From positions 383 to 64,382 of the forward strand of contig CAAFLY010000247.1 of assembly GCA_900763885.1 (NCBI GenBank): a DNA stretch of 64,000 bases. Direction: 5' to 3'. Below are positions 1,961 through 41,173 of this stretch, piece after piece (within the stretch, counting starts at the first letter, position 1; each line of letters starts with the position of its first letter). The notes below the pieces were generated by a model. The model saw only the letters and a program-made list of their open reading frames with translations, made no database searches and was not told where the DNA came from. The position numbers and the translations under genes are program-made. The stretch comes from Clostridia bacterium. GTDB lineage: Bacteria > Bacillota > Clostridia > Oscillospirales > CAG-272.

Positions 1961-4142
<2,182 letters not shown>

Positions 4143-4193
4143 CTCTCCTCCCCATCCATCCGACACGCATATCCACATCTGCGGAGGTACACT

Positions 4194-5162
4194 ATGGTAT
4201 ACGGGATCATCGCTGCGGTATTTCTCCTGTTTCTCGCCGTCTCTGCGGCAGGCGGGTATTATATGTACCGCTATGCCGTCGTGCGCCGGAAAAACGCGGC
4301 GGATTGCTGGGCACATCCGGAACAGCTCGAGCCGCCGCAGCATCTGTCGCCGGAGAAGGCAGCCCTCGTCCAGCGCGATCGGGAATACGTCCTCACCCAC
4401 GCGGGAAAGCCGTATTACAGAGTCAGCCGCGACGGCGTAACGCTGGCCTGCCGCATGCTCCATCCGACCGACGCACACACATCGCGCGGGATCTTTCTCT
4501 GCTGCCACGGCTACCGCTCCCACGCCGTTTACGATTTTGCGGGCGCGGCGCGGTATCTCCTCGCCATGGGCTTCTCGCTCTGTCTCATCGATGAGAGAGC
4601 GTGCGGCTCGTCCGGCGGCCGATATATCACATTCGGTCTGCGCGAAAAGGACGACGTCGTGGACTGGGCATGCTGGCTGCAGGAACGTTTTCCCGATCTG
4701 CCCGTGCTCCTCTACGGCGTATCGATGGGCGCGTCCTCGGTGCTTGCCGCGTCCGGTGAGCCTCTGCCGCCGTCTGTGCGCGGTATCATTGCGGACTGCG
4801 GATACACAAGTGCCTGCGCAATCTGCAAACGGGTACTGCGGCAGACGTTTCATCTCCCGCCCTTCCCCGTCTATTACGCCGCGCTGGTCCTGATCTGGCT
4901 GCGCACCGGGGTCTGGTTTCCGGATCTGGACTGCACACGCGCGGTCACGGAAAACCGGCTGCCGCTGCTGATCGTACACGGGAGTGCGGATGATTTTGTG
5001 CCGTTTTCCATGGGTGAGGCGATCTATGACGCGGCAAGGACACACTGCGACGCGGAATTTTTCGTCGCCGCCGACGCATCGCACGCCCGCTCGTGGCTCT
5101 GTGACGAGGACGGCTACAGGGCGGCGATCAAGCGGCTCCTCCATAAGGCGGGCATCGATTGA
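4194..5162 (+). CDS. Membrane-anchored alpha/beta hydrolase
   Basis: N-terminal TM helix, nucleophile elbow GVSMG, downstream HGSADDFVP and ASHARSW (Asp/His); RBS GGAGGT. Confidence 0.7.
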   Translation: MVYGIIAAVFLLFLAVSAAGGYYMYRYAVVRRKNAADCWAHPEQLEPPQHLSPEKAALVQRDREYVLTHAGKPYYRVSRDGVTLACRMLHPTDAHTSRGIFLCCHGYRSHAVYDFAGAARYLLAMGFSLCLIDERACGSSGGRYITFGLREKDDVVDWACWLQERFPDLPVLLYGVSMGASSVLAASGEPLPPSVRGIIADCGYTSACAICKRVLRQTFHLPPFPVYYAALVLIWLRTGVWFPDLDCTRAVTENRLPLLIVHGSADDFVPFSMGEAIYDAARTHCDAEFFVAADASHARSWLCDEDGYRAAIKRLLHKAGID

Positions 5163-5238
5163 GCCTGCGCGGCGCCGCGGACATATCATCCAACAATCCA
5201 TATATATCTATTTTCATCCACATCATTCGGAGGTAACC

Positions 5239-7425
5239 ATGTCTATTCAGTTCATCGAATCCGAACGCATCTTTCAGCTCAACGCCGGGACCGCTTCGCT
5301 TGTCCTGCAGGTCGCGGACGAAAATTACCTGCTCACCCTCTATTACGGCAAGGCTCTCCCGTTTGGCTCCCCCTTCCGTGGCGCCTTTGACGGGTACGAT
5401 TTCCGCGATTATTCCGCATCGTTCTCCCCGCGCAATGCCCATGTGAAGGACGGCTCGTTCTCCCCGGACGTAGCGCCGCTCGCGTATTCCGGCTTCGGTA
5501 CGGGCGATTTCCGCAAGTCCGCCGTCGCGATCCGGAATCACTGGGGCAACGACGCGACCGATTTCCGCTATGTTTCCCACAAAATCTATGCAGGCAAACC
5601 GCGGCTCACGGGCCTTCCGGCGACCTATGCGGACGAAAACGAAGCGGACACGCTTGAGATTCTCCTGCGTGACAGCACCACGGCGGCAGAGCTGACCCTT
5701 GTCTGCACGGCGTTCCGGGATGTGCCAGTGCTTACACAGTCTGTGCGCCTGTGCAATGCGTCCGATGTGCCGATGGATATAGAAAAGCTCTATTCCGCGT
5801 CCGTTTCCCTGAACGATATGGACTACGACCTCTGCCACCTCTACGGCAGATGGGGCGCGGAACGGAATCTGGAACGCACGACGCTGCGCCACGGTCAGCA
5901 GAGCATCTCCTCGAGCCGCGGCTCCTCAAGTCATTACCACAACCCGTTCGTTTCCCTCGTGCGTCACGGCGCGACGGAGGATTACGGCGAGGTATACGGC
6001 TTCAATCTCGTGTACAGCGGCAGCTTTGACATGACCGTGGACTGCGATTACTACGAAACGACACGTCTTTTGGCCGGAATCAATCCGGACGGCTTTACGT
6101 GGCGTCTTGAGGCGGGCGAAACGTTCCAGACGCCGGAGCTTGTGATGGTATATACGGACGCGGGCGTGGGCGAGATGTCGCGCATCTTCCATAGGCTGTA
6201 CCGGGAGCACCTGATCCGCGGCAGATGGAAGACGGAAAAGCGGCCTCTGCTCATCAACAGCTGGGAAGCGGCGTTCTTCCATTTCGACACGGACAAGCTG
6301 GTGAATTTCGCGGAGCACGCGCGGGATATTGGCATCGAAATGCTCGTCATGGACGACGGCTGGTTCGGCGTGCGCAACGATGACACGAATTCCCTCGGCG
6401 ACTGGTACGTGAACGAGGAAAAGCTGCCCGGCGGTCTGGGCGTCCTCATCGACAAAGTGAAGGCGCTCGGGCTGAAATTCGGGATCTGGTACGAGCCGGA
6501 GATGATCTCTCCGGATTCCGAGCTGTACCGCGCCCATCCGGACTGGTGCCTCCATGTGCCGAACCGCGAAAACTCCATCGCACGCAGCCAATATGTGATC
6601 GATATGTCGCGCAAAGACGTGCAGGACAACATCTACGGCCAGATGGCGGCGGTGCTCGGCAAATACGATATCGACTATGTGAAGTGGGACTTCAACCGGA
6701 ACCTCACCGAGGCCGGAAGCGCGCTGCTGTCCGTCGAACGCGGCGAGGAGATCTACCATCGGTTTGTGCTCGGCACGTACGCCGTCATGGATCGGCTGAC
6801 ACGCGAATTCCCCGATCTGCTCATCGAAAACTGCTCCGGCGGCGGCGGACGCTTTGACGCAGGGATGCTCTATTATTCCCCGCAGATCTGGGCGTCGGAC
6901 AACACGGACCCCATCGAACGGCTGGCGATCCAGTTCGGCACGTCGATGTGCTATCCGGCGGCGACAATGGGTGCGCACGTCTCGATGAGCCACCGCGCCG
7001 GCTTTGAAACCAAGGGCAATGTGGCGATGTGGGGTACGTTCGGCTACGAGCTGGACCCGAACCGTCTCTCCGAGGAGGACCGTGCGCTGTTCCGTCGGCA
7101 GGTCGCCGAATATCACTTCACCTATGACCTCATCCACGAGGGCGATCTGTACCGCCTGATCTCTCCGTTCGACAACGCGTACCACTGCGCGTGGTCCTTC
7201 GTCTCGCCGGACAAGAGCAAGGTGCTCATTACCCACGTCACCATGCGCTATTACCACAACATGAAGGCCTATATCCGGCTCAAGGGGCTCGATCCCACAA
7301 AAACCTACCGCTGCCGCGAGAACGGACTGTCCTATTCCGGCGCCTTCCTCATGAATGCCGGCATCAATATCTCCAAGCTCCCCCACGGCGACGGCAGCAG
7401 CTTCACCCTCTACTTCGAAGCCTGA
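5239..7425 (+). CDS. Alpha-galactosidase, GH36
   Basis: Track ORF 4984..7425 trimmed to the ATG at 5239 behind RBS GGAGGT (MSIQFIESERIFQLNAG). GH36 signatures KWDFNRN, ENCSGGGGRFD, WASDNTD. Confidence 0.9.
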   Translation: MSIQFIESERIFQLNAGTASLVLQVADENYLLTLYYGKALPFGSPFRGAFDGYDFRDYSASFSPRNAHVKDGSFSPDVAPLAYSGFGTGDFRKSAVAIRNHWGNDATDFRYVSHKIYAGKPRLTGLPATYADENEADTLEILLRDSTTAAELTLVCTAFRDVPVLTQSVRLCNASDVPMDIEKLYSASVSLNDMDYDLCHLYGRWGAERNLERTTLRHGQQSISSSRGSSSHYHNPFVSLVRHGATEDYGEVYGFNLVYSGSFDMTVDCDYYETTRLLAGINPDGFTWRLEAGETFQTPELVMVYTDAGVGEMSRIFHRLYREHLIRGRWKTEKRPLLINSWEAAFFHFDTDKLVNFAEHARDIGIEMLVMDDGWFGVRNDDTNSLGDWYVNEEKLPGGLGVLIDKVKALGLKFGIWYEPEMISPDSELYRAHPDWCLHVPNRENSIARSQYVIDMSRKDVQDNIYGQMAAVLGKYDIDYVKWDFNRNLTEAGSALLSVERGEEIYHRFVLGTYAVMDRLTREFPDLLIENCSGGGGRFDAGMLYYSPQIWASDNTDPIERLAIQFGTSMCYPAATMGAHVSMSHRAGFETKGNVAMWGTFGYELDPNRLSEEDRALFRRQVAEYHFTYDLIHEGDLYRLISPFDNAYHCAWSFVSPDKSKVLITHVTMRYYHNMKAYIRLKGLDPTKTYRCRENGLSYSGAFLMNAGINISKLPHGDGSSFTLYFEA

Positions 7426-9147: not shown

Positions 9148-10263
9148 ATGCAAAAAGTCATGCACATACTGACCGACTCCAACATCGGCGGCGCGGGCAG
9201 GCTGCTCATCAACTATCTCCACAACTTCGACCGCACGAAATTCGATATCGTGGTCGTGCTGCCGGAGAATGCCGCGCTGAAGCCGCTCGTCGAGGCGGAG
9301 GGATACCCGGTCTGGGAAATGAAAAACGGACGCGACCGCAGCTTTGACCGCAAGGCTGTGGCGGAGCTCCGCGCGATGATCCGCAAATTTCAGCCGGACA
9401 TCGTCCACACGCATTCGTCCTTCTCCGGCAGGCTGGCGGCGTACCAGTGCCATGTCAAAAAGCGGTTCTACACGCGTCACTGTGCCTTCGATCCGCCACG
9501 CTGGCTGACAACGTTCCCCGGCCGACAGATCAACGGCTGGATCAACAACAAGCTCTCGACGGATATTGTGGCGGTCGCTGAGGCGGCGAAGAAAAATCTG
9601 ACGGACACCGGTGTGGACGCGAAAAAGATCAGCGTGATCATCAACGGCGTCGAACCGATGCGCGTCGCTTCCGCCGAGGAGGTCAAAGCGCTTCGCGGTC
9701 GGCTCGGGATCGCGCCAGATGACTTTGTGTGCGGGCTCTCCGCGCGGCTTGAGCCGTACAAGGGCCATCGCTATCTCCTCGAAACGGCGGCGATCGTGCT
9801 GCGGGACCATCCGAACGTGCGCTTCCTACTCGTCGGGGACGGATCGTGCCGGGCGGATCTGGAAGCGCAGGCGGTCTCCCTCGGCGTGGCGGATCACGTG
9901 ATCTTTACCGGGTTCGTGGACGATGTGGCGCCCTATTACGCGCTTATGGACGTGAACCTCAACTGCTCCATCGGTACGGAGACCTCCTCACTCGCGCTCT
10001 CTGAGGGCATGAGCCTCGGTATCCCCTGCATCGCGACCACCTTCGGCGGCAATCCCTACATGGTCACCGACGGCAAAAACGGGTTCCTCGTCCCCGAACG
10101 AGATCCCGCCGCTATGGCAGAAAAAATCATCGAGCTCATCGAGGACCCCGCACTCCGCAAAAAACTCTCCGCCGGCGCCCTCGAAGCCTACAAAACCAAA
10201 TTCACCGCCTCGACTATGACACGCCAATTGGAATCCATGTACGAGGGGGATTTGAAAACTTAA
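9148..10263 (+). CDS. Glycosyltransferase family 4 (GT-B)
   Basis: 371 aa; N-terminal IGGAG loop and C-terminal E-x7-E region (SEGMSLGIPCIATTFGGNPYMVTDGKNGFLV); RBS AAAGGAGAG. Confidence 0.85.
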   Translation: MQKVMHILTDSNIGGAGRLLINYLHNFDRTKFDIVVVLPENAALKPLVEAEGYPVWEMKNGRDRSFDRKAVAELRAMIRKFQPDIVHTHSSFSGRLAAYQCHVKKRFYTRHCAFDPPRWLTTFPGRQINGWINNKLSTDIVAVAEAAKKNLTDTGVDAKKISVIINGVEPMRVASAEEVKALRGRLGIAPDDFVCGLSARLEPYKGHRYLLETAAIVLRDHPNVRFLLVGDGSCRADLEAQAVSLGVADHVIFTGFVDDVAPYYALMDVNLNCSIGTETSSLALSEGMSLGIPCIATTFGGNPYMVTDGKNGFLVPERDPAAMAEKIIELIEDPALRKKLSAGALEAYKTKFTASTMTRQLESMYEGDLKT

Positions 10264-10966
10264 CGGGGGGAGACGGGGAACGGGGAACGGGGGAACGGTC
10301 GCTTTTGAAAAAGCTCCGCAAAACTTTTATGAGGGGGATGGAGTTGGATATAGTTTGTGCAAGTCCGATTGCTCACCAATTTGGTGCTGTCCAATACATG
10401 AGAAGATCGTTCGCGAGCGGCTGACGCAGTCATCCGCCTTCTACGGGGAGAGATTGCGGGATTTCGTGTATTGGGTAGTGGTAGGATACCGGTTTTCTGC
10501 TGCTATACTGGTTCGGATGGTTGGAGGATTGCGGATGCGCGTTGTCTGTTCCCCATACCCGCGTCTTTCAAATTGAATAACAAAAGCCGTCGGAAGTGCT
10601 TCAAAACACAACCGACGGCTTTTTGTCACGGTTAGATAAAGCAATGCGCGGAGTGAATCGGGATACAGGCAAAAATCAACGTTTTCCCCAACACACCGAA
10701 CCAGTGTATCAACAGAAACCCGGTAACCTGCCACTACCAATACACTATATCCCGCACTCTCTTCCCGTAGAAGGCGGATCCCATCGGGAGCCGCTCGCGA
10801 ACGATCTTCTCATGTATTGGACAGCACCAAATTGGTGAGCAATCGGACTTGCACAAACTAAATCCATCACCAATCCCATGTATAAAAGTTTTGCGGAGCT
10901 TTTTCAAAAGCGACCGTCTCCCCTCGTCTCCCCTCGTCTCCCCTCGTTCCCCCGTCTCCCCGTCCC
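10264..10966. repeat. Full-length palindromic G-tract-capped intergenic element (archetype, about 700 bp)
   Basis: Imperfect inverted arms of about 240 nt (10264-~10505 and ~10725-10966). G-tract cap 10265-10293 and C-tract cap 10917-10966; palindromes 10301-10314 and 10898-10911; boxes GCAAAACTTTTAT 10318-10330 and ATAAAAGTTTTGC 10882-10894. Confidence 0.85.
10582..10624. terminator. Bidirectional intrinsic-terminator-like hairpin at the centre of the element
   Basis: AAAA-GCCGTCGG-18 nt loop-CCGACGGC-TTTTT, lying between the convergent GT4 (+) and acyltransferase (-) genes. Confidence 0.6.
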
Positions 10967-10973
10967 AAGTATG

Positions 10974-11912
10974 TCAGTCCACATCCGGGATCACTTCCGG
11001 GCGTTCGTCGAGCTGCCAGGGGTTGCGGAAGATGCTGTGGAGGTATTTGAGGGCGGAGGCGTAGTAATAGCCGTCACAGATGCGCTCATCGGTCACGAAG
11101 GTGTAGTCCATGTACTGTTTTTTCTTGACCACGCCGGAGGAATCCGTTTCGTATACGCGCCGTTTCGCGCCGAACGCGAAGAATACGGGGCACGTGCCGA
11201 AGTCGTAGAGGTGGTGATAGATCGGCGGGATCCCGAGGGAGCCCATCGACGTAATGAAGTACGAGCAGTGGAACGGACTGACCTCGGCGAGGGCTTTGGG
11301 GAGCAGTCCGAAATAATCGAGGAAGCGGAGGAAGGCAATCGTGAATTTGAGAAGGAGCGAAGGAATGGACGAGAGCCAGCGCGCCGTATCGTCAAAGCTG
11401 CTTTCCGGATTGTCGCGATAGGACACAATCTTGTCGTTGAGGGCGTTGTACACATCCTCCAGCGTCGCGTCCGGCAAAAGCGAGATCTTCACCGCGCTGT
11501 CCGGTGCGTCGAGCCGCATCTCCTTCTTGATGACGAGCGACACCTCCACGTGCCGCCGCGTCCATATCCGCTGTCCGCGTATGAATCGGTTGAGCGCGGG
11601 CCGTGCCGCCACAAGCCGGATGTATGCCGCGATCATCACGTGCATCATGCTCAGATTCACCATGCCCGCCTGCTGCTTTTCCTTGATGTACCGCTCCAGC
11701 TTCTCCACATCGGTCGTGTCGTGGATGAAATTCTGCGCGCCCACCCGATTCACCATGATAAACGGGATCATCGCCGTCATCGGCGGTACGCTCTTCACGC
11801 GGCGGAATTCCCGCTCCTTCTTCCGTTTGCGCGGCCGCGGCGCATGGTTCTCCGCGTTCGTCTGCACCTCCCGCGTTTCCTGCGCTTCTGTTTTCATCTG
11901 TTCTTCAGCCAT
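10974..11912 (-). CDS. 2-oxoacid dehydrogenase acyltransferase catalytic-domain protein
   Basis: Track ORF trimmed to ATG 11912 (RBS GAGGGGG). Basic N-terminus, then an E2-like catalytic core with DERICDG (compare DHRxxDG). Confidence 0.55.
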   Translation of the reverse strand: MAEEQMKTEAQETREVQTNAENHAPRPRKRKKEREFRRVKSVPPMTAMIPFIMVNRVGAQNFIHDTTDVEKLERYIKEKQQAGMVNLSMMHVMIAAYIRLVAARPALNRFIRGQRIWTRRHVEVSLVIKKEMRLDAPDSAVKISLLPDATLEDVYNALNDKIVSYRDNPESSFDDTARWLSSIPSLLLKFTIAFLRFLDYFGLLPKALAEVSPFHCSYFITSMGSLGIPPIYHHLYDFGTCPVFFAFGAKRRVYETDSSGVVKKKQYMDYTFVTDERICDGYYYASALKYLHSIFRNPWQLDERPEVIPDVD

Positions 11913-12084
11913 TGTCAGCCACCCCCTCACAAGAATTGGTTCAATTATTTGTATTATATCACATCGCGCACCGAATTGCAACGGCTGTTTTCGATTTCGG
12001 CAGATTTTTATACAACTTTAAGATTTCGTGCCAAATTCAGCCGGAATTCTTGTAACCGCTATCACAGATTTTTGGGAATCCCGC

Positions 12085-16148: not shown

Positions 16149-16252
16149 GGGGAACGAGGGGGAGACGGGGGGAGACGGGGGTACGCGGCTTTTGAAAAAG
16201 CCTGGCAAAACTTTTATGAAAAGGGGGATGGAATATAGTTTGTGCGAGTCTT
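16149..16252 (+). repeat. Solo arm of the G-tract-capped element
   Basis: GGGGaacgaGGGGGagacGGGGGGagacGGGGG (16149-16181), palindrome GGCTTTTGAAAAAGCC (16187-16202), GGCAAAACTTTTAT, GGGGGATGGAATATAGTTTGTGCGAGTC. Confidence 0.8.
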
Positions 16253-16272
16253 ATAGTGCAGTATTTTCCGGG

Positions 16273-17040
16273 TCACTGTGGATCCCGATCCGCTACGCTT
16301 TCGGCGATTTGCAGGATCTCTGCGTCGGTCACCGCGCCGTCCTCTACGTGAAGGCTATAGGCGTACATGCCGTCGTCCCAATACACGGAGCGGACGGAGC
16401 CCCAATCGGGGTCATAGGTGATGAAGATGCCGGGGCGGCCGCCTATGGTACAGTCCTCGATGGTGCAATGCTCGTTATTGACCGCGGTCAGCCCGTCCAA
16501 GGTCATCTGGTGATAGCCGATGATCTGTCCGGCGTCTGCGGCAGCGTCCACGTCGTCGCCCTTATAGTAGTCGACCACATACATCCCGATGCTTTCTATA
16601 CAGACGTCCGCGCCGGTATAGCCATCGGGGAGATAGGTGGGTACGCGGACCTTTTCGAGGATTTCCGGCGCGTCCTTGGGGATCTCATGGTTCAGCTCCA
16701 TATGGTTATCGAACCACGTGACCATCGACCGCCAGAGCTTCTCGCGGACGGCGGAAATGGACAAGGTCAGGCAGATGGCGACGGCAAAACAGGCGCACGC
16801 GGCGGAGAACCAGCGGATGCGGCTCCTACGGCGGCGGTTTTTCTCCCGTTTTTTCTCCTCCGCGGCGAAGAGCTCCCGGATCCGGTCGTTATGCCGTTCG
16901 GAAAACACGTGCTCATCAGGGGCAGACGCAGCCTCCGTATTCTCGTGCTGTATGGCGGCGCGGCGGATGGCGTCGTCCAGGGAGAGCTTTGATGTGTCCC
17001 CCTGCCCATGGGGTTTTGGCAAGATGGTATGACAGATCAT
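16273..17040 (-). CDS. Putative anti-sigma factor (single TM, DUF4367-like C-terminal domain)
   Basis: 255 aa; start overlaps the sigma-factor stop (ATGA); one TM (WFSAACACFAVAICLTLSI); extracytoplasmic beta-rich domain. Confidence 0.55.
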   Translation of the reverse strand: MICHTILPKPHGQGDTSKLSLDDAIRRAAIQHENTEAASAPDEHVFSERHNDRIRELFAAEEKKREKNRRRRSRIRWFSAACACFAVAICLTLSISAVREKLWRSMVTWFDNHMELNHEIPKDAPEILEKVRVPTYLPDGYTGADVCIESIGMYVVDYYKGDDVDAAADAGQIIGYHQMTLDGLTAVNNEHCTIEDCTIGGRPGIFITYDPDWGSVRSVYWDDGMYAYSLHVEDGAVTDAEILQIAESVADRDPQ

Positions 17041-17588
17041 TGTATGGTCTCCTTTCGCGTCGTGAGGCAGGTATACAGTGCCTTTTTCCCGCGCAGCAGC
17101 CGGGTACGGACCGTCACCTCGTGGATATCAAGTGCCTGTGCGATTGCGGCGACGGACATATCGTGTGCGTACCGGAGAAGAATGACCTCGCGAAAATCGG
17201 GCTTGATCCGATCGATGGCGCGGCGCAGCTCCTCCACGTTCTCCGCGGCGACGACGGCATCCTCCGGCAGCGGTGTGGGATCCGGCACATCGGGCGCGTC
17301 CTCCAACGGGGTATCGGGCTTCCGGCGGCGCAGAATGTCGATGGCGGCATGGCGGGTATAGATGCACAGGAGGGCTTCATTCCGATCGCGATGGGGCAAA
17401 TCGGCGGTATCCTCCTCCAGCGGTTCGGTGAACTGCCCGATATGGCGGAGCATACGGACCACGGCATCGGCTACGGCGTCCTCGGCATCGGCTTCGCGGT
17501 GCAGGATCCCGAACGCCACGGCATACATTTTCTGGCGGTACCGCGTATAGAGCAGCGCGGCAAGGTCTGTAGAATGTAGAGTAGGCAC
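17037..17588 (-). CDS. RNA polymerase sigma-70 family (ECF-like) sigma factor
   Basis: Last 183 codons of track ORF 17037..18671. GTG start at 17588 behind AAAGGAG. Region 2 (YTRYRQKMYAVAFGIL) and region 4 HTH (MSVAAIAQALDIHEVTVRTRLLRGKK). Confidence 0.8.
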   Translation of the reverse strand: MPTLHSTDLAALLYTRYRQKMYAVAFGILHREADAEDAVADAVVRMLRHIGQFTEPLEEDTADLPHRDRNEALLCIYTRHAAIDILRRRKPDTPLEDAPDVPDPTPLPEDAVVAAENVEELRRAIDRIKPDFREVILLRYAHDMSVAAIAQALDIHEVTVRTRLLRGKKALYTCLTTRKETIQ

Positions 17589-17849
17589 AGTTGCTCCTTT
17601 CGGGATCCTCCATAAGCTATACGTCCGGCGAACAGAAATGTTCCCATACAAACAGAAAAATGAGGATTCTTTTTGAAATTTCGGCGTGTATCGTCCCGTC
17701 GCGCCTTGCGTTTCCGGCGGATCCGTGTTATAATAGGGGCAGAGGCTCCCACACCGGAAAAACGCGGGGGAGCGGACACGGCAGACCGGGCAGTGCGGAC
17801 ACAACGGAGCGCGGGACGGTCGGTTTTTATCACAAAGGGGAGAGTTAGA

Positions 17850-18605
17850 ATGAAAATTGCCATCATCACAGGCGCATCGGCGGGACTCGGGAAGGAATTT
17901 CTCCGGCAGGCACCCGCGATGTTCCCGGAAATTGACGAATACTGGCTGATCGCGCGTCGGAAGGAAAAGCTGCTCGAGGCGGCGACGCTTGTGAAGAAGC
18001 AGTGCCGGATCTTCCCGCTCGATCTGACGGAGGACGCGAGCTACAGGCGGCTGGAGGAGGAGCTGGCGTCGGTTCGGCCGGAGGTCGCGCTGCTTGTGAA
18101 CAATTCCGGCTGCGGCTATCTCGGCAACGTCGGCGAGGGAGAGCTTGTCCATCAAACGACGATGGTGGAGCTGAACATCAAGGGGCTGACGGCGGTGACG
18201 CATATCGTGCTGCCGTACATGGGCAAGGGGGACCGGATCATCAACGTATCGTCGATCGCGTCGTTCTGCCCGAATCCGCGCATGACGGTCTACAGCGCGA
18301 GCAAGGCATACGTATCGGCGTTCACCTACGGCATCGGCTATGAGCTGCAGTCGCGCGGGATCACGGCAACGGCGGTCTGCCCGGGACCAATGGACACGGA
18401 TTTCATCTATCTCGGCGAGATCAAGGGCAACTCGAAAACCTTCGACACACTGCCCTACTGCGACCCGGCGGAGGTAGTACGCGGCGCATACAGGGCGGCA
18501 AAGGCAGGCAAAGCAAGCTACACCCCCAAGGCCTTCTACCGCTTCTATCGCTTCCTCGCCAAGCTCCTGCCCGTCCGTCTGGTGATGAAGATGGCGAAAA
18601 CCTGA
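17850..18605 (+). CDS. Short-chain dehydrogenase/reductase (SDR)
   Basis: Start ATG 17850 (MKIAIITGASAGLGKEF = TGxxxGxG); NNSG; catalytic YSASKAY. Confidence 0.85.
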   Translation: MKIAIITGASAGLGKEFLRQAPAMFPEIDEYWLIARRKEKLLEAATLVKKQCRIFPLDLTEDASYRRLEEELASVRPEVALLVNNSGCGYLGNVGEGELVHQTTMVELNIKGLTAVTHIVLPYMGKGDRIINVSSIASFCPNPRMTVYSASKAYVSAFTYGIGYELQSRGITATAVCPGPMDTDFIYLGEIKGNSKTFDTLPYCDPAEVVRGAYRAAKAGKASYTPKAFYRFYRFLAKLLPVRLVMKMAKT

Positions 18606-18697
18606 GAGAAGGGCTGCTTTACAGTCGATTCCCGCGCCAAAAAGCCATCCGTTCATGCTTTTTCCGCACAAAATCCGCTCGATTCTCCATAAACCCT

Positions 18698-21920: not shown

Positions 21921-23996
21921 TCATTCCTCCCACTTCCCGGCACCGCGGCAGTACAGGATCCATCGCGCCCGATCCAGGGGATTGACGCCGCGTCTGGGCG
22001 TTTCATGCATCTCTCCCGCGGGGCATTCGCTGTAGCCATAGAAATCCGACGCGCACGACGCCTTGCCGGAGGTGGTGGACGCGATCCAGACCGAGAAATA
22101 CATCGTGGTCGCAAGCGGGAGGATCGCCTCGATGGACGCGGTATCGCCCGTCACGACCGGTGTATCGTAGGTCCCGCGCCGACTCGTGATCTGCGAGAGA
22201 ATCTTGCCGGATAGCTCCATGGGGCAGGTGATCCGCCAGCGCATGAGCGGCTCAAGCAGCGTGGTCCCGCATGCGACAAGTCCGTTCATGAACGCCATCG
22301 GGGTGCAGACGAAGAAGTCGAGCGGGTGCGTATGGATCGTGTGATGCTCGCCGCCGATGAGATCGCACCGGAAATCCGTGACCTCCCATCCGTGCAGGCC
22401 CTGCGCGAGACATTCCCCGAACGAACGGCGGATGTGGCTCTGGTACCGATAGAAAAGCCGATTGGACGGCAGTCTGCCATGATAGGACACGCCGTATCCG
22501 CGCGGCATGGGGGTGAATTTGAACTGCACGACCGCCCAGCACGGCTTCGGCATGGTATAATCGGCGTAGGCGATCCCCTCGCGCGTCGGCGTTTCCTTAT
22601 AGATAACGGTCGGATCGGAGAAGACCGCGCGCTTGCCGTACCGTTCCCACAGAAGGTTCTCAAGGATCTCCTGCTGCACGCCGCCGGTCAGTCGCACGAC
22701 GATCTCGGACTGGCCGTTTTCCCATTTCGCGTCGAGGTACGGCTCCTCCTCGGACAGCTCCCGCATCGCGTTTGCCAGCGACGGCAGGGCTTCTCCGGGC
22801 ATTTTCGCTTCGTCCTGCGCGGATGGCTTAACCTGCACGGACAGCAGCGGATGGGCAAGGCGGGCGGCATGGCCTCCGGTGACCTCTCCGACAAAATTGC
22901 CGCATTTCGCCCCGGTCAGACCGCACAGCACGCCAATATCCCCGGCGGTGACCGAACCCGCGTCCACGAATCTGCCCCCGTTTTGCACATCGGCGCGGCG
23001 GATCTGGGTGATCTTCCACGGTGCGGCAGGCGTATCGTCCTCCACGGGAACAGCGTCGTCCGGCTCGGGATCGGCGGTGGCGGGATCGGTTTGTGCGGCG
23101 GGATCGATGAGGGTGACGGAATCGCGGCTTTTGAGACTTCCCCCGAACAGGCGGATATACGCCATCTTGCCCATGGCGCGGTCGTGCTCGATCTTGAAAA
23201 TCACGCCGGAGAGGGCGTCCGACGCGCGACAGGCGGCGTCCGGCATGAGATCGGTGCAGAAATCGAGCAGCTCCGCGACGCCCGTGCCGTTTTTCGCGCA
23301 TCCCCAGAGAATCGGCGTGATCCTGCAGTCGCGGATGGCGGATCGCAGCTTTTCGCGCGCCACGGCGTCCGGCAGGGTGGTATCGGTGAGGAAGGCTTCC
23401 TCCGCGTCGGGATCGATCTCCGCGAGTGCCTCCGTAGCGGCCTGCGCCAGCGTGCGCGGGTGGATCATCGCGGCGGCGGTGCCAATACCGGAGACGGATT
23501 GCGCGTGCATATACGCCATGTGCGGTCCGGTGATACGGCGTAACGCGGCGGGCAGCGTGGCGGAATCGGGGGCGGAACGCTCGGCTCCCGCGCGGTCGAT
23601 CTTATTGACGAACAGGACACGCGGGGTGTGGCAGGCGTCGAGGGCGCGGAGGATATTTTCGGTATGCGCGCGCACGCCGTCCGGGGCGGATACGACGACA
23701 ATGGCAATATCCAGCGCGCCAAGACACCGCTCGACCTCCCCCGCGAAATCGACATGGCCGGGGGTATCGATGATGTTGACCGTCTTGCCGTGCCAGAAGA
23801 GCGACGCGGTGGCCGCCCGGACCGAGATCCCGCGCTCCCTCTCGACGGACAGCGAATCGGTGCGCGTGCTGCCGTTGTCCACGCTCCCCGCCTCCCGGAT
23901 GCTCCCCGCCGCGTACAGCATCCGCTCCGTCAGCGTGGTCTTTCCGGCGTCTACGTGCGCAAGGATCCCCAAATTCAAAAATGCACTCGCTGGCAT
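21921..23996 (-). CDS. TetM/TetO-family ribosomal-protection-type translational GTPase (divergent)
   Basis: 691 aa. N-terminus LGILAHVDAGKTTLTERMLYAAGSIREAGSVDNGSTRTDSLSVERERGISV..NIIDTPGHVDF..NKIDR aligns to the Tet(M)/(O)/(W) G domain. C-terminus PRRGVNPLDRARW parallels PRRPNSRIDKVRY. Confidence 0.65.
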   Translation of the reverse strand: MPASAFLNLGILAHVDAGKTTLTERMLYAAGSIREAGSVDNGSTRTDSLSVERERGISVRAATASLFWHGKTVNIIDTPGHVDFAGEVERCLGALDIAIVVVSAPDGVRAHTENILRALDACHTPRVLFVNKIDRAGAERSAPDSATLPAALRRITGPHMAYMHAQSVSGIGTAAAMIHPRTLAQAATEALAEIDPDAEEAFLTDTTLPDAVAREKLRSAIRDCRITPILWGCAKNGTGVAELLDFCTDLMPDAACRASDALSGVIFKIEHDRAMGKMAYIRLFGGSLKSRDSVTLIDPAAQTDPATADPEPDDAVPVEDDTPAAPWKITQIRRADVQNGGRFVDAGSVTAGDIGVLCGLTGAKCGNFVGEVTGGHAARLAHPLLSVQVKPSAQDEAKMPGEALPSLANAMRELSEEEPYLDAKWENGQSEIVVRLTGGVQQEILENLLWERYGKRAVFSDPTVIYKETPTREGIAYADYTMPKPCWAVVQFKFTPMPRGYGVSYHGRLPSNRLFYRYQSHIRRSFGECLAQGLHGWEVTDFRCDLIGGEHHTIHTHPLDFFVCTPMAFMNGLVACGTTLLEPLMRWRITCPMELSGKILSQITSRRGTYDTPVVTGDTASIEAILPLATTMYFSVWIASTTSGKASCASDFYGYSECPAGEMHETPRRGVNPLDRARWILYCRGAGKWEE

Positions 23997-24142
23997 GGTA
24001 TACCTCTCTATCGCTTATGATTTGGTACAGGGGACGCGCTGGCAGAACCCTTCCCGAAAAGGGCCACACCCCCTCCAAAAGCGTTTCTATCGGGGAGCTG
24101 GTGCCGTCCGCGTCCGTTATTTCTGTTTTCGGCCTTATTCTC

Positions 24143-24171
24143 ATTATACCAAAATTGTTGACAATATGCAA
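24143..24171 (-). promoter_or_regulatory. Sigma-A-type promoter (TTGCAT-17-TATAAT) for the TetM-like gene
   Basis: Minus strand: TTGCAT (24171-24166), 17-nt spacer, TATAAT (24148-24143); about 140-nt leader to ATG 23996. Confidence 0.55.
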
Positions 24172-24219
24172 GCGCAAAAAAGATGCTCGACCGGCAGCGG
24201 ATCGGGCATCCTTTATGGT

Positions 24220-25815
24220 TTACAGGGCTTCGTAGATCCTTGCCCCGCGTTTGTAGAGCCAGATCCACAGTGCTGCTGCAGCGGCGATGGTGACGGCGGT
24301 GACAGGGAGGAGATACAGCACGGCGTTGACCGGCCCCGGGAAGAGGAAATACACGATCACGGCAGCCGCACCATAGATCCAGCCGCCAAAGAGGCAGAGG
24401 AACACGGGCAGGCTTTGCTTGATCGGGATATTTTCATTCGACCAGGTGAGGTTCGGGTGCTTGAGATTGAGGGCCAGACCGAGCGCGGCGGAGAAAAACA
24501 CGTAGGCGGTCGCGGCGGCAAGGAGGAGCACGGTCTGGAGGATGGTCAATCGCAGTCCGATGGCGGCGCAGATACAATAAAGCGTCATCGGCACCGCGGT
24601 CAAGGCGACGTGCAGCCAGAGCTTGGCGCGCAAAATCTGCCACGCGGTGACGGGGAGGGACCTCGCGATCCAGAGATTTTTCCCTTCCAGAGAGACGGAG
24701 GGCGCGGAGATGTCGTTCATGGCGGCGAGGGCAAACGCACCCCCGACGGCAAAAACAACGGCTGCCTCCGCGGTACCGAGAAGCTCCGGGATCATCTCCG
24801 CGAGCATACCGCCCTTCCAGAGGAGCAGCACGGCGCAGATCGGGATGAGGAGGATCGCCATTCCGCAGTTGAGCATATAGTTCGCGCTGCTTGTAAAGCG
24901 GAACGCTTCGCGCCGGAGGAGAGCCATATCGGGAGAGTGGACCTTTTCCCTGCCGGCGACATACGCCTTTTTCCCGATGTTCTGCGGTGTGGTGGCAAGC
25001 CGGATGAAGCTATGGGCGATGAGGTACGCGGTGAGGACGACGAGCAGGACGGTGACGGCGGTGACGGACACGATGGCAAGGGGATCGCCGGTGCCCATTT
25101 TGCCGATGGCGTAGAGGGGATACGCCGCGCCCCGGATCTTCGCGCCCACGACAGCGGCATTGGCGACCAGCTCCGTGATCATGGACTGCGCGCGGAAGTA
25201 GACGAGGTAGTACAGACCGATGAACACCAGGGAGGCAAGCACGGTGATCACGCTCTTATGGCGCAGCTTGACGGAGATCTTCGCGACGACCCAGCCGAGC
25301 AGGCACGACAGCACCAGCACGAACAGCGTCACGCACACGACAAGCAAAATCGACCCGACGACGGCAAGCGGGGTCACGGGGACGGTCACGAAATAGACGA
25401 TCACGGCGGGGATGATGACAATCCCGGAGTACATCAGACCCATGAGGTACACGCCGAGGAGTCGGGACACCATGATCGCGCGCACGGGGATCGGCATGGA
25501 CAAGAGCAGGTCGTTGTCCCTGGCAAGGTACAGGCTCGCGAACGTATTGAACACGCTGCCGAATACACCGAGCGCTATGGAGATCATGGCGATGAGCAAA
25601 AAGTACAGCCACGGTACGCCGGCGTCCGACAGCGGTCGGCACAGGCTTATGGCAAAATACGTGAAGATCCCGCCGAGCACGCCGACGATCAAAAACGCGT
25701 ACAGGACAAACAGCCCGATCACAGCCCCCTTCGAGCGTGCCTTGTTCTTTTTCGCGTCATAGAAATACATCCGAAACATTTCGGCCATCTGTTTTTTCAA
25801 TAGAATCTTTATCAT
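24220..25815 (-). CDS. ABC exporter permease (large ABC-2 / 'putative ABC exporter' type)
   Basis: 531 aa from ATG 25815 (RBS AAAGGA, 9-nt spacing); at least 12 TM segments. Presumed partner of the ATPase at 28244-28948. Confidence 0.7.
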   Translation of the reverse strand: MIKILLKKQMAEMFRMYFYDAKKNKARSKGAVIGLFVLYAFLIVGVLGGIFTYFAISLCRPLSDAGVPWLYFLLIAMISIALGVFGSVFNTFASLYLARDNDLLLSMPIPVRAIMVSRLLGVYLMGLMYSGIVIIPAVIVYFVTVPVTPLAVVGSILLVVCVTLFVLVLSCLLGWVVAKISVKLRHKSVITVLASLVFIGLYYLVYFRAQSMITELVANAAVVGAKIRGAAYPLYAIGKMGTGDPLAIVSVTAVTVLLVVLTAYLIAHSFIRLATTPQNIGKKAYVAGREKVHSPDMALLRREAFRFTSSANYMLNCGMAILLIPICAVLLLWKGGMLAEMIPELLGTAEAAVVFAVGGAFALAAMNDISAPSVSLEGKNLWIARSLPVTAWQILRAKLWLHVALTAVPMTLYCICAAIGLRLTILQTVLLLAAATAYVFFSAALGLALNLKHPNLTWSNENIPIKQSLPVFLCLFGGWIYGAAAVIVYFLFPGPVNAVLYLLPVTAVTIAAAAALWIWLYKRGARIYEAL

Positions 25816-25837: not shown

Positions 25838-25938
25838 AGAGGGGAACGCGGCTTCTTGAGAACGAACTTGTTCGTTCCAGCCTTGGCAAGAACTTTTATA
25901 AATGGATGGGATTGACTTTTGTTTGTGCAGGTCCGGGG
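25838..25938 (+). repeat. Left arm of the element pair bracketing a 2.4 kb insert
   Basis: GGGGAACG, GCGGCTTCTTGAG-[GAACGAACTTGTTCGTTC hairpin]-CCAGCC, TTGGCAAGAACTTTTATA, ATGGATGGG, TTTGTTTGTGCAGGTCCGGGG. Confidence 0.75.
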
Positions 25939-27917: not shown

Positions 27918-28128
27918 ACTATTCTCCTCATTCGTAAGCCACATACGGAAACGCACCAAACCATATCCTGAGCGCACATCCCTACGTCGTCAAACGATCC
28001 AGCCGAACCGCCACCTTACGATAGCGCTGTCACAAACGACAAAAACCTCCTCACAATACAACCCGAACACACCACAGCCAACCAAGGTCGCAGCCCATCC
28101 GTCCGACTCAGTCAAAGCCAAAACTCCA

Positions 28129-28240
28129 CCCGGACCTGCACAGACTATATCCAGTCCCTTTTCATAAAAGTTTTGGGAGGTGTCGGAACCTTTTTGAAAA
28201 AAGGTTCTGACGTCGTTCTCCCCGTATCCCCCGTTCCCCC
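28129..28240 (-). repeat. Right arm of the element pair bracketing the 2.4 kb insert
   Basis: CCCGGACCTGCACAGACTATATCC, TTCATAAAAGTTTTGGG, palindrome GAACCTTTTT-G-AAAAAAGGTTC (28186-28207), C-tract cap CTCCCCGTATCCCCCGTTCCCCC ending 3 nt before the ATPase stop. Confidence 0.8.
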
Positions 28241-29196: not shown

Positions 29197-30699
29197 TTAT
29201 TCGAGCGTCTCAAACGCCTCGAGCAGTGCGGGGAGCTTCTTTTCGGACAACTCGACCTTCTTTGCCAGCGTGGAGGCGCCCTTGGAGGTCTTCGAGTTGT
29301 TGATGTGGTTGCGCGGGATCTGGATCAGGTCGGCAAGGCTTGCGGAATATACGTAGCCGAAGTCGAAGCGCACGCCCGCGTGGATGAGATCGAGCATCTC
29401 CGCGGTGGCGGTGTCGCGCGCCAGCTTGCCCTTGATCGTCGTCTCATAGTACGCCAGCGTGCAGGTCCGGTACGATTCCGCGCACAGGGCCTCCAGGGTC
29501 GCCGCGGCGATATCCGGAGTGGCGCACGTCACCGGGATGCAGAACACGGAGAAGCCGTTGTGCGTGAAGCCGCAATAGTTCTGCTGTGCTTCGTCGTACT
29601 TCGGACACGGCAGGATCATGTAGTCCGCCTCCATGTCGCGCAGGGAGTCGGTCAGGCTCAGGCGGAAGATCGTCATCAGCGCGGTGTCGTCCATGAGCTT
29701 GTTCGCAAGATCGACGTACTCCTGCTTGATCGCGTAGTTGTTTTCGTAGAAGAGGACCTGCGCCTTTTCGATGAAGCCGATCGTCTTTTCGCTGTTGAAC
29801 ACGATCTTCAGCGTGTCTCCCTCGTTCTCGACCAGCGGAATGTCAAACGAACCGACCAGCGCGTCGTTGACGATGCCGACCGCGTCCCGGATGAAGCCGT
29901 AGATGTCGCCCACATCCGCCTTGCCGTCGCCGTTTACGTCGTGGTAGATGTCCGCAAGCCGGAGCACCTCGTCGTACGTCCAGCCGCCGGCGCGTACCGT
30001 TTCATACGGATCGTAGCCCGTGTGGTACTCGTTCAGCACGGATTTGTTCAGGATCGTCACGTATGTGCCGCGCAGCATCGTCTGGCTGATGTCGCCCGCC
30101 GCCATGTAGTTCTTGCCGTTCAGCGTGATCTGCTCGCGGAAGGACGGATTCCACCACGGCATTTCAAAATCGAGATACGGCTGCGCGTTCAGATTGAGAA
30201 AATACTGCTGCAGTACGTACGGCGTCATCTGGCTCATGTGGCTCGCGATGAGGTCGTACACGGGGTCGCCCGCGTTGATGGCAGCCGACATCAGTACCTT
30301 GATCTGGTCCATGCCGTGGATCTCATCGGTCGTTCCCACGTAGGTAAGCTTGACGTTCAGCCGATCCTCTACGGAGATGTTCCGGTTGAAGATGGAGGAA
30401 TCCACCACGTCGCCGGTGTTGTCCGCTGTGATCTCGACCTGCACGTCATGGTCCCCGCCGCGGTGGAGAATGCAGATCTCCTCGCCGCCGAAATCGAGAT
30501 CCATGGGCAGCGTGTCGGGCGTGTTTTCACGGCCCTGCACCGTCTCTTCCTCTTTTTCCGTATCCGTCGAGAGCGCCTCGGACGGCGTTGTTTCCGTGCC
30601 CTTGGTCTCGTCGCTCCCGCTCTGTCCGCAGCCGGTGAAGGTAAGGGAGGACGCGATCATCAGCGCCGCGAGAATCGTTACAAATGTAGCTTTTTTCAC
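29197..30699 (-). CDS. ABC-transporter solute-binding lipoprotein (tandem paralog A1)
   Basis: 500 aa; GTG start 30699 (RBS GGAG); lipobox FTGC; closely similar along its whole length to 30812-32311. Confidence 0.8.
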   Translation of the reverse strand: MKKATFVTILAALMIASSLTFTGCGQSGSDETKGTETTPSEALSTDTEKEEETVQGRENTPDTLPMDLDFGGEEICILHRGGDHDVQVEITADNTGDVVDSSIFNRNISVEDRLNVKLTYVGTTDEIHGMDQIKVLMSAAINAGDPVYDLIASHMSQMTPYVLQQYFLNLNAQPYLDFEMPWWNPSFREQITLNGKNYMAAGDISQTMLRGTYVTILNKSVLNEYHTGYDPYETVRAGGWTYDEVLRLADIYHDVNGDGKADVGDIYGFIRDAVGIVNDALVGSFDIPLVENEGDTLKIVFNSEKTIGFIEKAQVLFYENNYAIKQEYVDLANKLMDDTALMTIFRLSLTDSLRDMEADYMILPCPKYDEAQQNYCGFTHNGFSVFCIPVTCATPDIAAATLEALCAESYRTCTLAYYETTIKGKLARDTATAEMLDLIHAGVRFDFGYVYSASLADLIQIPRNHINNSKTSKGASTLAKKVELSEKKLPALLEAFETLE

Positions 30700-30720
30700 A
30701 ATTTTCTACTCCTTTTATTC

Positions 30721-30777
30721 AAAAAACGCCTGTGGTATTGCCAAATCAAGTATACCACAGGCGTTTGATTTTGTCAA
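30721..30777 (-). promoter_or_regulatory. Overlapping terminator hairpin and TTGACA-17-TATACT promoter
   Basis: Minus strand: TTGACA (30777-30772), TATACT (30754-30749). A 14-bp stem AACGCCTGTGGTAT/ATACCACAGGCGTT plus TTTTTT spans 30766-30721. Confidence 0.6.
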
Positions 30778-30811
30778 GGTGTCCGGAAAAATTGCGAATG
30801 TGAATCCCGCA

Positions 30812-32311: not shown

Positions 32312-32422
32312 ACGTTGCTCCTTCATGGCATTCCGCGGGAATACGCTGTCATACCGTCTTCTTTGTGCAAAAATCCGACATATCCAAAGCGCATTCTCCG
32401 TTATTTTGTTGTGTGCACCTGT

Positions 32423-32451
32423 AGTATAGCACAGCGAGCGACACTTGTCAA
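32423..32451 (-). promoter_or_regulatory. Sigma-A-type promoter (TTGACA-17-TATACT)
   Basis: Minus strand: TTGACA (32451-32446), 17-nt spacer, TATACT (32428-32423). Confidence 0.55.
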
Positions 32452-32515
32452 CGTGCATTTCCCAAAAACTGCTACAAAAAACGTTTCTGTTTTTGAGATT
32501 CTGACGGCACGGGAC

Positions 32516-32560
32516 AAAAAATCCCCCGCAGGATCGCCGTAGCGGAGATTCTGCGGGAGA
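32516..32560 (-). terminator. Intrinsic terminator after the oxidoreductase gene
   Basis: Minus strand: TCCCGCAGAATC..GATCCTGCGGGGGA followed by TTTTTT. Confidence 0.65.
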
Positions 32561-33729: not shown

Positions 33730-34007
33730 GATACGGTCGCTTTTGAGAACGAACCCTCTCGCCCCAGCGCCCGCAAAGCTTTTGTACATAAATGGGTTGT
33801 ATTGCAAGTGTGCAAGTCTGGACAAAGTAAACGAAATTTGCCCAGACAGCACGCTGTGTAACAAAGAATACCGCCTACCATAAGACGGAGCAGACGCAAA
33901 CCGAAAGAACCAAATCCCCTTATGAAAATCGCACAAATTATACCCTGTCCTTTTTCATAAAAGTTTTGCGGAGCTTTTTCAAAAGCGACCGTTCCCCTCG
34001 TTCCCCC
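33730..34007. repeat. Short (about 280 bp) paired copy of the element
   Basis: Left arm GATACGGTCGCTTTTGAGAACGAAC..CGCAAAGCTTTTGTACATAAATGGG..GTGTGCAAGTCTGG. Right arm TTCATAAAAGTTTTGCGGAGCTTTTTCAAAAGCGACCGTTCCCCTCGTTCCCCC ends on the nt before the SBP stop (34008). Confidence 0.8.
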
Positions 34008-41172: not shown

Positions 41173-41173
41173 A

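Follow-up and report, generated by a model that had tools for sequence, protein, structure and literature searches.

A convergent doublet of a clade-wide, high-copy intergenic unit fills the gap between two genes in a Clostridia genome

In a stretch of 64,000 nt from a Clostridia bacterium (assembly GCA_900763885.1, contig CAAFLY010000247.1; hereafter the window), the whole gap between a GT4 glycosyltransferase gene and its convergent neighbour is taken up by a palindromic sequence at 10264-10966, and the locus raises the question of what kind of element this is, how it came to lie there and what it might do between two genes. In the original prediction it was the archetype of an unrecognised element of about 700 bp, either a non-autonomous mobile element or a structured DNA/RNA module spread by recombination. 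Our results revealed that it is a convergent doublet of a smaller unit, which occurs in high copy number in intergenic spacers throughout a clade of Clostridia, and that the family can be followed in its anatomy, its placement relative to genes, its gain at this junction, the inversion of its centre and the mosaicism of its copies. The family is a previously undescribed one, REP/BIME- or BOX-like in kind.

The element begins 1 nt past the GT4 stop (TAA, 10261-10263), and at its other end lies the stop of the minus-strand open reading frame (ORF) 10974-11981, which reads TCA on the plus strand at 10974-10976. The 'acyltransferase' label of this ORF is backed only by a weak 2-oxoacid_dh match in Pfam (E = 4.6e-7), and the same convergent gene is found after GT4 at the loci L080, L083 and L085 (loci outside the window are cited here by such numbers). 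Compared with its own reverse complement, 10264-10966 matches at 79.5% over 702 nt (E = 1.7e-158) and is therefore an imperfect palindrome, whose arms are resolved by a repeat search into pairs of 141 nt (89% complementary), 51 nt (88%) and 51 nt (82%), jointly about 260 nt per arm. The two stops, the G-heptads and C-tracts, the palindrome GCTTTTGAAAAAGC, the box GCAAAACTTTTAT, their mirrors and the central hairpin are all present as had been described; GGA stands in every repeat of the left array (10264-10294), which fits a G-quadruplex motif, and the mirrored C-tracts span 10917-10966. As in predicted intrinsic terminators, the 8-bp GC stem GCCGTCGG/CCGACGGC of the central hairpin is followed by a T-run, TTTTTGT on the plus strand and TTTTGTTATT on the minus strand, and its fold reaches -24.1 kcal/mol (z -5.1) on the former and -31.1 kcal/mol (z -7.0) on the latter. 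A simple terminator scan missed this hairpin, since the loop as drawn is probably over the 8-nt limit of the scan.

What is repeated, in fact, is the single arm. An nhmmer search of the window with a profile built from six arms gave 13 matches at E < 1e-5 and 17 at E < 0.05, and all units of the window lie in spacers between genes, of which they occupy roughly a third. The 28-nt core pattern occurs 10 times with at most one mismatch, against 0 expected from shuffles. Long units of about 200-260 nt start at 10264+, 10953-, 50579+, 51103-, 44668+ and 41173-, and short or degenerate ones at 34008-, 33730+, 16149+, 56505+, 28239-, 55006-, 42800+, 43228-, 25887+ and 52079-, the short units being a discrete class of about 100 nt that stops after the second hairpin, H2. 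A SINE-like retroposition with 5' truncation, in which the short copies would keep the heptads and the core, was rejected on this ground, as the lengths form no continuum. Convergent doublets are found at 10264/10953, 50579/51103, 33730/34008 and probably 42800/43228, that is at 3-4 of about 12 sites, and the other units of the window are single; in related genomes tandem units of the same orientation are seen as well. The palindrome of about 700 bp is consequently not the archetypal unit as had been supposed, for the arm also stands alone, in tandem and in the short form of about 100 nt. Nor is the central terminator a common module, being absent from the other type-A copies of the window (the lineage types are described below) and from the doublet in the adk-map spacer. 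A remnant of a unit, with one heptad and the first half of the core (GGGGAACGGTCGCTTCTGAA), was also observed at 40163-40192, directly after a TGA.

Beyond the window, the core was detected in at least 79 loci of species-representative genomes, and among the matches listed nearly all belong to uncultured gut Clostridia, Eubacteriales or Oscillospiraceae metagenome-assembled genomes (MAGs) of human and ruminant origin. The arm and the core, which might have occurred only once or twice, thus occur many times both here and in related genomes, and the 17 profile matches together with these loci bear out the original prediction of an unrecognised high-copy intergenic repeat in a BIME-like inverted arrangement. 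At least 15 Clostridia MAG species share the core GGTCGCTTTTGAAAAAGCTCCGCAAAACTTTTAT without a single base change, at loci of 34-58% GC, and the sequence around it (heptads, body and ends) is lineage-specific. In type A, to which the window belongs, heptads (GGGGAAC/GGGGAGAC)n precede the window-type body; in type B, heptads (GGACGCG/GGATGCGA)n precede a body of about 95 nt, and each unit ends in its own covarying hairpin with a T-run; type C, of low GC, has doublets of 370-400 nt with the sharp ends AAATTGGGATTT...AAATCCCAATTT; and type D has yet another body. Convergent doublets were found in every one of the types A-D. The genome of the window is close to UMGS1696 and CAKRZR01, with 82-96% nucleotide identity over shared segments.

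In the original prediction the element was not recognised as REP/BIME, BOX, RUP, ERIC, Correia or a known insertion sequence (IS) end, and in the searches for a known counterpart no Rfam family and no IS end accounts for it. Rfam gave no match on units in the window, in the element at permissive thresholds or in 12 related loci: the only match in the window is a tRNA, and 10100-11100 at permissive thresholds yields nothing above noise. No match was found in viral contigs with the core pattern or in plasmid and phage collections with the whole element, and a full-text literature search for the core, box and heptad strings returned nothing relevant. A separate observation concerns L005, L010, L027, L049, L055 and L075, where the exact 28-nt core (up to 35 nt in L010) lies inside apparent nonribosomal peptide synthetase condensation-domain frames, as called by eye from the motifs RHExLRTxF and PFDL. 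There the frame on the reverse complement gives ..IDKSFAELFQKRP.., GC is no higher than 42-44% at these loci, the contigs had been binned under Deferrimicrobium, Acidobacteriota and one Clostridia MAG, and about 1e-4 chance matches are expected by our estimate for the collection scanned.

Read from the outside inward, a unit consists of G-rich, GGA-containing tandem heptads, a 34-nt core formed by the hairpin H1 and the box GCAAAACTTTTAT, and a body of hairpins. In degenerate copies the pairing of H1 is kept while its sequence is changed, with compensatory variants such as GGCTTTT/AAAAGCC, GAACCTTTTT/AAAAAGGTTC, GCTTCTT/AAGAAGC, ACTTTTTT/AAAAAAGT and GTGGGGC/GCCCCAC, and therefore the core acts as part of a folded single strand and not as a double-stranded protein site or promoter. 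Among 32 aligned type A units, H2 (ATGGATTT[AGTTTGTGC]AAGTCCAT) is paired in 79% of cells, and a hairpin with its U/G-rich loop recurs in type B on other stems (CGTC/GACG, CCTA/TAGG, TCGT/ACGA). In H5, located between GGCT and ATCC, the first pair is G-C in 14 sequences and C-G in 13, the second is A-U in 14 and C-G in 6, and long forms carry compensations of their own (GAGTTTAGC/GCTAAACTC, GAATTTAGC/GCTAAATTC, GAGTTTGG/CCAAACTC). For the manually drawn structure as a whole, 78% of cells pair, compared with 40-52% when the partners are slid, and the covariation score of 0.105 (0.084 in shuffles) is reached by 0 of 500 shuffles. This covariation of the hairpins upholds the notion of a structured DNA/RNA module. 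Moreover, G·U pairs outnumber A·C pairs 63 to 1 in H2 and 32 to 1 in a candidate helix, ACGGUC/GAUCGU, that joins the 5' flank of the core to the body, and the strand that reads heptads, core, body is the one with the UUCG- and UACG-type loops. Both features place the fold on that strand, and judging from the sequences it is more likely RNA than DNA. In the CAKRZR01 copy of the unit at 44668 (L016, about 6050-6110; window 44697-44710), an insertion of 49 nt with two hairpins was seen in the loop of H1, which suggests nested hairpins within hairpins in this repeat family.

As for the heptads, GGA occurs 3.0 times per 60 nt upstream of units against 0.43 for TCC, and a canonical G-quadruplex motif is present in 25 of 101 units. 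Lying just after a stop codon, the heptads could form a G-quadruplex, or could attract CsrA or 30S subunits through GGA or Shine-Dalgarno-like sites, and their C-rich complement could be a Rho loading site for antisense read-through. Other roles proposed for these sequences were rejected. The coding of a small protein in either direction is broken in every frame by 1- and 2-nt indels and variable hairpins among the 32 aligned units, just as the lack of conserved ORFs among copies had been anticipated, and the reverse-strand frame reading KSFAELFQKRP fails likewise. Reverse-strand ORFs also shift frame between copies. A DNA-uptake signal does not suit a core whose Clostridial copies are all intergenic and whose hairpin is kept by compensation, not by sequence. 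Compared with CodY, CcpA, Spo0A, Rex, sigma-54 and extracytoplasmic-function sigma sites, Xer/dif sites and Tn3-family inverted repeats, the core appears to fit none of them. A sigma-A-type promoter, with -35 and -10 hexamers and, in the -10, an A as second and a T as sixth base, was detected by a consensus scan on neither strand of the core, and the TATnnn after the core rarely ends in T.

The placement of the units relative to genes is far from even. By crude longest-ORF calls, the heptad side has a stop codon as its neighbour 65 times and a start codon 24 times, with mostly 0-25 nt up to the stop, and in spacers between co-directional genes the forward orientation is found 24 times and the reverse 9 times. 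Units sit even inside the minus-strand spc/alpha ribosomal-protein/secY/adk/map operon at 49790-57734, where all four long spacers (S14-S8, 616 nt; L18-S5, 368 nt; secY-adk, 405 nt; adk-map, 556 nt) have them, and a short unit lies between purH and purD in L008/L059, these genes being identified by their terminal residues. Since they sit inside operons, we infer that units are transcribed at least within operon mRNAs. By eye, a sigma-A-like TTGGCA-17 nt-TAAAAT can be read just upstream of the S8 gene.

The history of the element at the GT4 junction can be read from its relatives. In the same-species contig L080 it is identical to that of the window and collinear, and it is also present in UMGS1696 (L071) and in L082 (GT4 91% identical). 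As the original prediction had hoped, orthologous junctions lacking the element do exist: in L083/L084 (GT4 85% identical) and L085/L086 (77%) the gene order is the same and the spacer is only 73 and 68 nt, respectively, so that the element was added later and brought about 640 nt. Each short spacer holds one simple bidirectional hairpin terminator (AAAAAGGGGGAGAAAAACTT-CCGA-AAGTTTTTCTCCCCC in L083), and the filled sites carry a central terminator different from it. No target-site duplication was seen at the GT4 junction, and the comparison of empty and filled sites does not give a clean insertion. The ancestral terminator stem GGGGGAGAAAAACTT/AAGTTTTTCTCCCCC was noted at 3620-3660 of L083 and 3615-3655 of L085; it has GGGGGAGA and AAAACTT in common with the outer modules of the unit, which may mean that terminator hairpins serve as targets, or may be a coincidence. 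Other simple hairpins with a stem GGGAGA..AAACTT were sought as minimal members of the family, and only the L083/L084 site was found.

Comparison of the window with UMGS1696 further reveals that the element is reshuffled in place. The centre with the inner arms (about 10504-10743) is inverted relative to the flanking genes, the whole element aligning at 87.7% when inverted and at 78.8% when collinear (tile-wise alignment, blast), and L082 has the orientation of UMGS1696; the arms hence recombine with each other. The identity of 94.7% in the right arm and 94% in the centre exceeds that of GT4 (87.6%) and murJ (80%). In the left arm, different module variants occur in the two genomes, all of them from the discrete pool of the family, and this mosaic pattern indicates gene conversion between copies. 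The orthologous site has 4 heptads in the window and 1 in UMGS1696, the array having grown or shrunk since the gain, and the spacer 43111-43241 shows three different states in three genomes. At L081, the GT4 gene is identical to that of the window at 1116/1116 nt and the heptads and core are identical too, followed by a 52-nt patch with 13 differences at 4196-4245 (window 10343-10394), covering H2 and the following stretch, after which identity resumes; the patch stems either from a very recent exchange of modules or from a chimeric end of the contig, which stops inside the repeat. The supposed spread by recombination gains from these comparisons the specific point that copies recombine with each other.

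Among known systems, the REP/BIME of Enterobacteria and the REPINs of Pseudomonas are likewise high-copy, extragenic and hairpin-based and form clusters of alternating orientation; REP/BIME also lie just after stops, between convergent genes or inside operons, make no target-site duplication and are co-transcribed with the upstream gene, as the units here would be. REP/BIME stabilise upstream mRNA and attenuate or terminate transcription, and a similar role is conceivable for the units. By the features that define a REP/BIME/REPIN unit, we find a short imperfect palindrome (H1), an extragenic location, about 17 units in 64 kb and convergent and tandem clusters, but the unit is far longer, with 100-260 nt against about 35 nt, and has a tandem heptad array and a multi-hairpin body that REP lacks. 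REP sequences are species-specific, whereas the 34-nt core is identical across genomes of 34-58% GC, and unlike the situation of REP/REPIN, no REP-associated tyrosine transposase (RAYT) was found among ORFs near units. The BOX elements of Streptococcus pneumoniae, boxA-(boxB)n-boxC, are similar in belonging to Firmicutes, in being modular with a variable number of tandem sub-repeats, intergenic and transcribed (which for the units is presumed), with a stable predicted fold, no transposase and no known mobilisation mechanism. However, there is no sequence similarity, their sub-repeats are the 45-nt boxB and not G-rich repeats of 7-10 nt, and it is in the present family that convergent doublets with a central terminator are typical and that many genera are spanned. 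Correia elements of Neisseria and other miniature inverted-repeat transposable elements (MITEs) are small, palindromic and intergenic too, with inverted ends, presence or absence between relatives and the ability to supply terminator or processing sites; yet the terminal inverted repeats of Correia elements are fixed at 26 nt and accompanied by a TA duplication, while the present family has variable ends, frequent single or tandem units and no duplication. In behaviour the family is thus closest to REP/BIME and BOX, and in shape, without the defining duplication, it is like Correia-type MITEs.

Of the Rfam families, Gut-1 (RF01706) alone turned up near a relative, at L009, with an array of GUGAAAU heptads that follows directly on a stop codon; it adjoins a unit there and does not lie on it. 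That this motif occurs in human-gut metagenomes is all that the original paper states (Weinberg et al. 2010, PMC2864571). Gut-1 is an orphan motif, not known outside human-gut metagenomes, with a heptad array (GUGAAAU or GUGAUAU) directly after a stop codon, and its seed sequences have the same palindromic layout beside stop codons. However, the element of the window does not match the Gut-1 model, and the Gut-1 heptads are separated by short hairpins whereas those here are contiguous and G-rich. The resemblance is one of layout only. The two matches in L009, at 1879-1954 (75 bits) and 7021-7102 (51 bits), are each located at or just after the upstream stop and are followed by an AU-rich hairpin, GCATTTTC-TGAC-GAAAATG and TTTTCAT, resembling H1 plus the box; opposite that at 1879-1954, on the other side of the spacer, stands a core-bearing unit, and the gene downstream reads as the GTPase der.

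Taken as a whole, the element is probably, and we say so with moderate confidence, best explained as a transcribed repeat of the REP/BIME or BOX kind whose doublet serves as a terminator cassette. A unit would be transcribed together with the gene whose stop adjoins it, as a 3' untranslated or intercistronic extension, and would fold as RNA on the strand of that upstream gene. At the GT4 junction, the doublet and its central hairpin would have replaced the native terminator between GT4 and the convergent neighbour, and the doublet may act there as a bidirectional terminator and insulator, probably also as a barrier to 3'-end degradation, as REP/BIME and BOX do. New copies might arise by a route that makes no target-site duplication, that is by recombination or gene conversion between copies and hairpin-rich spacers, or alternatively by means of an HUH-type enzyme encoded elsewhere in the genome, and recombination among the many copies would keep the family homogeneous. 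Several points weigh against this explanation. Transcription, RNA folding, termination or mRNA stabilisation and the mode of spread are all inferred in it, and nothing in it explains the invariance of the core across such different genomes. About one quarter of the units (44668+ and the second members of doublets in co-directional spacers, among others) point away from any gene upstream and so cannot be 3' untranslated elements, and of the longest-ORF calls behind the orientation counts several are wrong-strand shadow ORFs. A purely terminating role sits uneasily with an inverted repeat of 240 bp in the adk-map spacer, within an essential operon. That the element is more conserved than its flanks could come from gene conversion or transfer and not from selection. 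As to the fold, the structure was drawn from the same sequences and the copies are mutually related, which makes the covariation statistics only moderately strong, and the long-range helix is paired in only 59% of cells.

Other readings of the same material have to be considered. It is possible, and we propose it tentatively, that core, GGA heptads and covarying hairpins constitute a new widespread class of structured RNA in gut Clostridia, placed in 3' untranslated regions and intercistronic spacers with a Gut-1-like layout and spreading without duplication, which would be more than passive REP-like DNA in that a conserved protein reads it. The heptads might, for instance, titrate a partner that is CsrA-like or binds ribosomes, or the folded core might be recognised by a nuclease or transposase. 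If the covarying hairpins are instead DNA hairpins, the element could be of REP/REPIN type and be moved as single-stranded DNA by a RAYT, an IS200/IS605-like HUH Y1 transposase. The hairpin-containing conserved core, the clusters of alternating orientation, the location after stops, the very high copy number, the lack of a duplication and of terminal inverted repeats in single units, and the compensatory changes of H1, which fit a hairpin recognised single-stranded, all speak for such a movement. We nevertheless think it unlikely, because a crude HUH/Y motif screen of 378 ORFs near units revealed no RAYT-like ORF and a PHROGs scan of 150 of them no transposase, a unit exceeds a REP in length 3-8 times and is structured throughout, loops of the UNCG type and the marked surplus of G·U pairs speak for RNA, and the core lacks the conserved 5' GTAG of REPs. 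Quite unlikely is the classical MITE. Akin to the MITE/BIME-like element of the original prediction, it would make the doublet a deletion derivative of an IS with a DDE transposase, its arms being long terminal inverted repeats and its movement a cut-and-paste by a transposase elsewhere. The architecture with inverted repeats (arms 79-89% complementary over about 260 nt in the doublet), the small size, the absence of a conserved ORF, the presence/absence polymorphism and the sharp-ended type C doublets of 370-400 nt suit it; but single units have no terminal inverted repeat, single, tandem and short forms are commoner than doublets, the ends are variable heptad arrays and not fixed termini, the orientation is biased relative to genes, and hairpins covary along the whole body. 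Moreover, no target-site duplication was found at any doublet (10264/10966, 50579/51103, 33730/34008), at single units or at type C elements, the plasmid, phage and viral collections held no match, and the stretches enclosed by inverted pairs and the surroundings, up to about 4 kb, of about 100 units (about 0.55 Mb examined) yielded neither a parent IS nor a transposase, the ORFs between widely spaced inverted pairs in L068, L007, L025, L065, L053 and L036 being by eye all ordinary housekeeping genes.

The doublet might also be regarded as two convergent small-RNA genes arranged like RNA I-RNA II of par/Fst, with the core as promoter and the central hairpin as shared bidirectional terminator. 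The core does occupy a promoter-like position upstream of a structured body ending in a terminator, TTGAAA-17 nt-TATnnn can be read in it, every type B unit ends in a hairpin with a T-run, and units facing away from their neighbours would need a promoter of their own. But the consensus scan finds no promoter, the would-be -10 lacks the conserved final T in nearly all copies, degenerate copies keep the hairpin by compensation and lose TTGAAA (TTCAAA or other loops), and the two arm RNAs are alike and not complementary, which leaves no antisense logic; we hold this reading to be improbable. Finally, the opposite orientation of the centre and inner arms in window/L080 and UMGS1696/L082, at about 94% identity, is what would be expected of an inverton, in which a site-specific recombinase would flip a phase-variable segment, with the arms as its inverted repeats. 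This is very improbable, as the flipped segment contains only a near-symmetric terminator and, by the scan, no promoter, so that its inversion changes nothing obvious, the arms of about 240 nt are long enough for ordinary homologous recombination, no invertase gene is nearby, and the same-species contig L080 is identical and collinear.

The invariance of the core, together with the density of units even in a ribosomal-protein operon, is what makes the family noteworthy. That a non-coding core of 34 nt stays identical in genomes ranging from 34 to 58% GC implies that it has a conserved partner. If the units indeed act as portable terminator and insulator cassettes, Firmicutes would have in them a counterpart of REP/BIME whose ancestral empty site is defined. 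The layout of the units also gives a genomic context to Gut-1, a motif without function since 2010. With units in so many of the spacers, even in a ribosomal-protein operon that is normally compact, annotation, operon prediction and assembly of abundant uncultured gut Clostridia are affected, and contigs break or turn chimeric at the units. The coordinates of the features are collected in Table 1.

Table 1. Features of the element at 10264-10966, its flanking genes and further units in the window
Feature	Position	Strand	Remarks
Upstream flanking gene	9148-10263	+	GT4/GT1 glycosyltransferase; Pfam Glyco_trans_1_4 3.3e-36, Glyco_transf_4 1.2e-19
Left G-rich heptad/octad array GGGGGGAGAC GGGGAAC GGGGAAC GGGGGAAC	10264-10294 (G-heptads 10265-10293)	+	direct-repeat family; microsatellite-like
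Left invariant core ACGGTCGC-TTTTGAAAAAGC-TCC-GCAAAACTTTTAT	10295-10330	+	exact 28-mer matches
Hairpin H1 GCTTTTGAAAAAGC	10301-10314; mirror 10898-10911		within core
Box GCAAAACTTTTAT	10318-10330; mirror 10882-10894		within core
Left body, candidate helices	10331-10530	+	alignment of 32 units, pair counts; RNA fold -145 kcal/mol, z -5.1
H2	10344-10351/10361-10368	+	left body; loop AGTTTGTGC
Long-range helix	10391-10403/10462-10474	+	left body
H4	10407-10416	+	left body; UUCG loop
GCGG/CCGC helix	10417-10420/10434-10437	+	left body; encloses covarying hairpin H5, 10422-10432
H6	10438-10451	+	left body; UACG-type loop
Central segment, inner arms and terminator	10504-10743		opposite orientation in UMGS1696 and L082 orthologues
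Central GC-stem hairpin GCCGTCGG...CCGACGGC	10582-10623	both	A-tract before, T-tract after; resembles bidirectional intrinsic terminator
Right body, inverted copy of left body	10701-10881	-	nhmmer E = 6.2e-73; 94.7% identical to UMGS1696 orthologue
Right invariant core	10882-10917	-	28-mer at 10882-10909, 0 mismatches
Right heptad/decad array	10918-10966	-	C-tracts (CGTCTCCCCT)n on + strand, G-rich on the unit's strand; 4 copies
Convergent flanking gene	10974-11981	-	weakly acyltransferase-like; stop 7 nt from element
Short unit, variant core GGCTTTTGAAAAAGCC	16149-16259	+	
Degenerate short unit	25887-25937	+	H1 replaced by another hairpin
Short unit, H1 variant GAACCTTTTT/AAAAAGGTTC	28127-28239	-	3 nt past stop of ABC-transporter ATPase gene
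Short convergent doublet	33730-34008		units 33730-33820 +, 34008-33931 -
Single unit	40973-41173	-	1 nt past ChlI/ComM-like stop, extends to start of next gene
Degenerate convergent doublet	42800-43228		units 42800-42880 +, 43228-43167 -
Long single unit	44668-44930	+	present in window and CAKRZR01, missing from UMGS1696 orthologous spacer
Second convergent doublet, adk-map spacer	50579-51103		units 50579-50817 +, 51103-50901 -; no strong central terminator
Degenerate unit, secY-adk spacer	51986-52079	-	sense to operon
Unit, L18-S5 spacer of ribosomal-protein operon	54946-55006	-	sense
Core-only unit, 616-nt S14-S8 spacer	56505-56552	+	antisense to operon

Some further observations concern the genes of the window. 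Many of its longest ORFs, among them those at 2154-5201, 22633-25803, 30350-32542 and 38086-40044, have no Pfam match at E <= 1e-5. With a GC content of 57% in the window, at least some longest-ORF calls are wrong-strand shadows, as was found for 54004-56589, and simple ORF maps of this genome are therefore unreliable. In a 544-aa ORF on the minus strand at 17037-18671, a long N-terminal part without Pfam match precedes the only matches, to sigma-70 regions 2 and 4, which lie in the last 170 residues or so.

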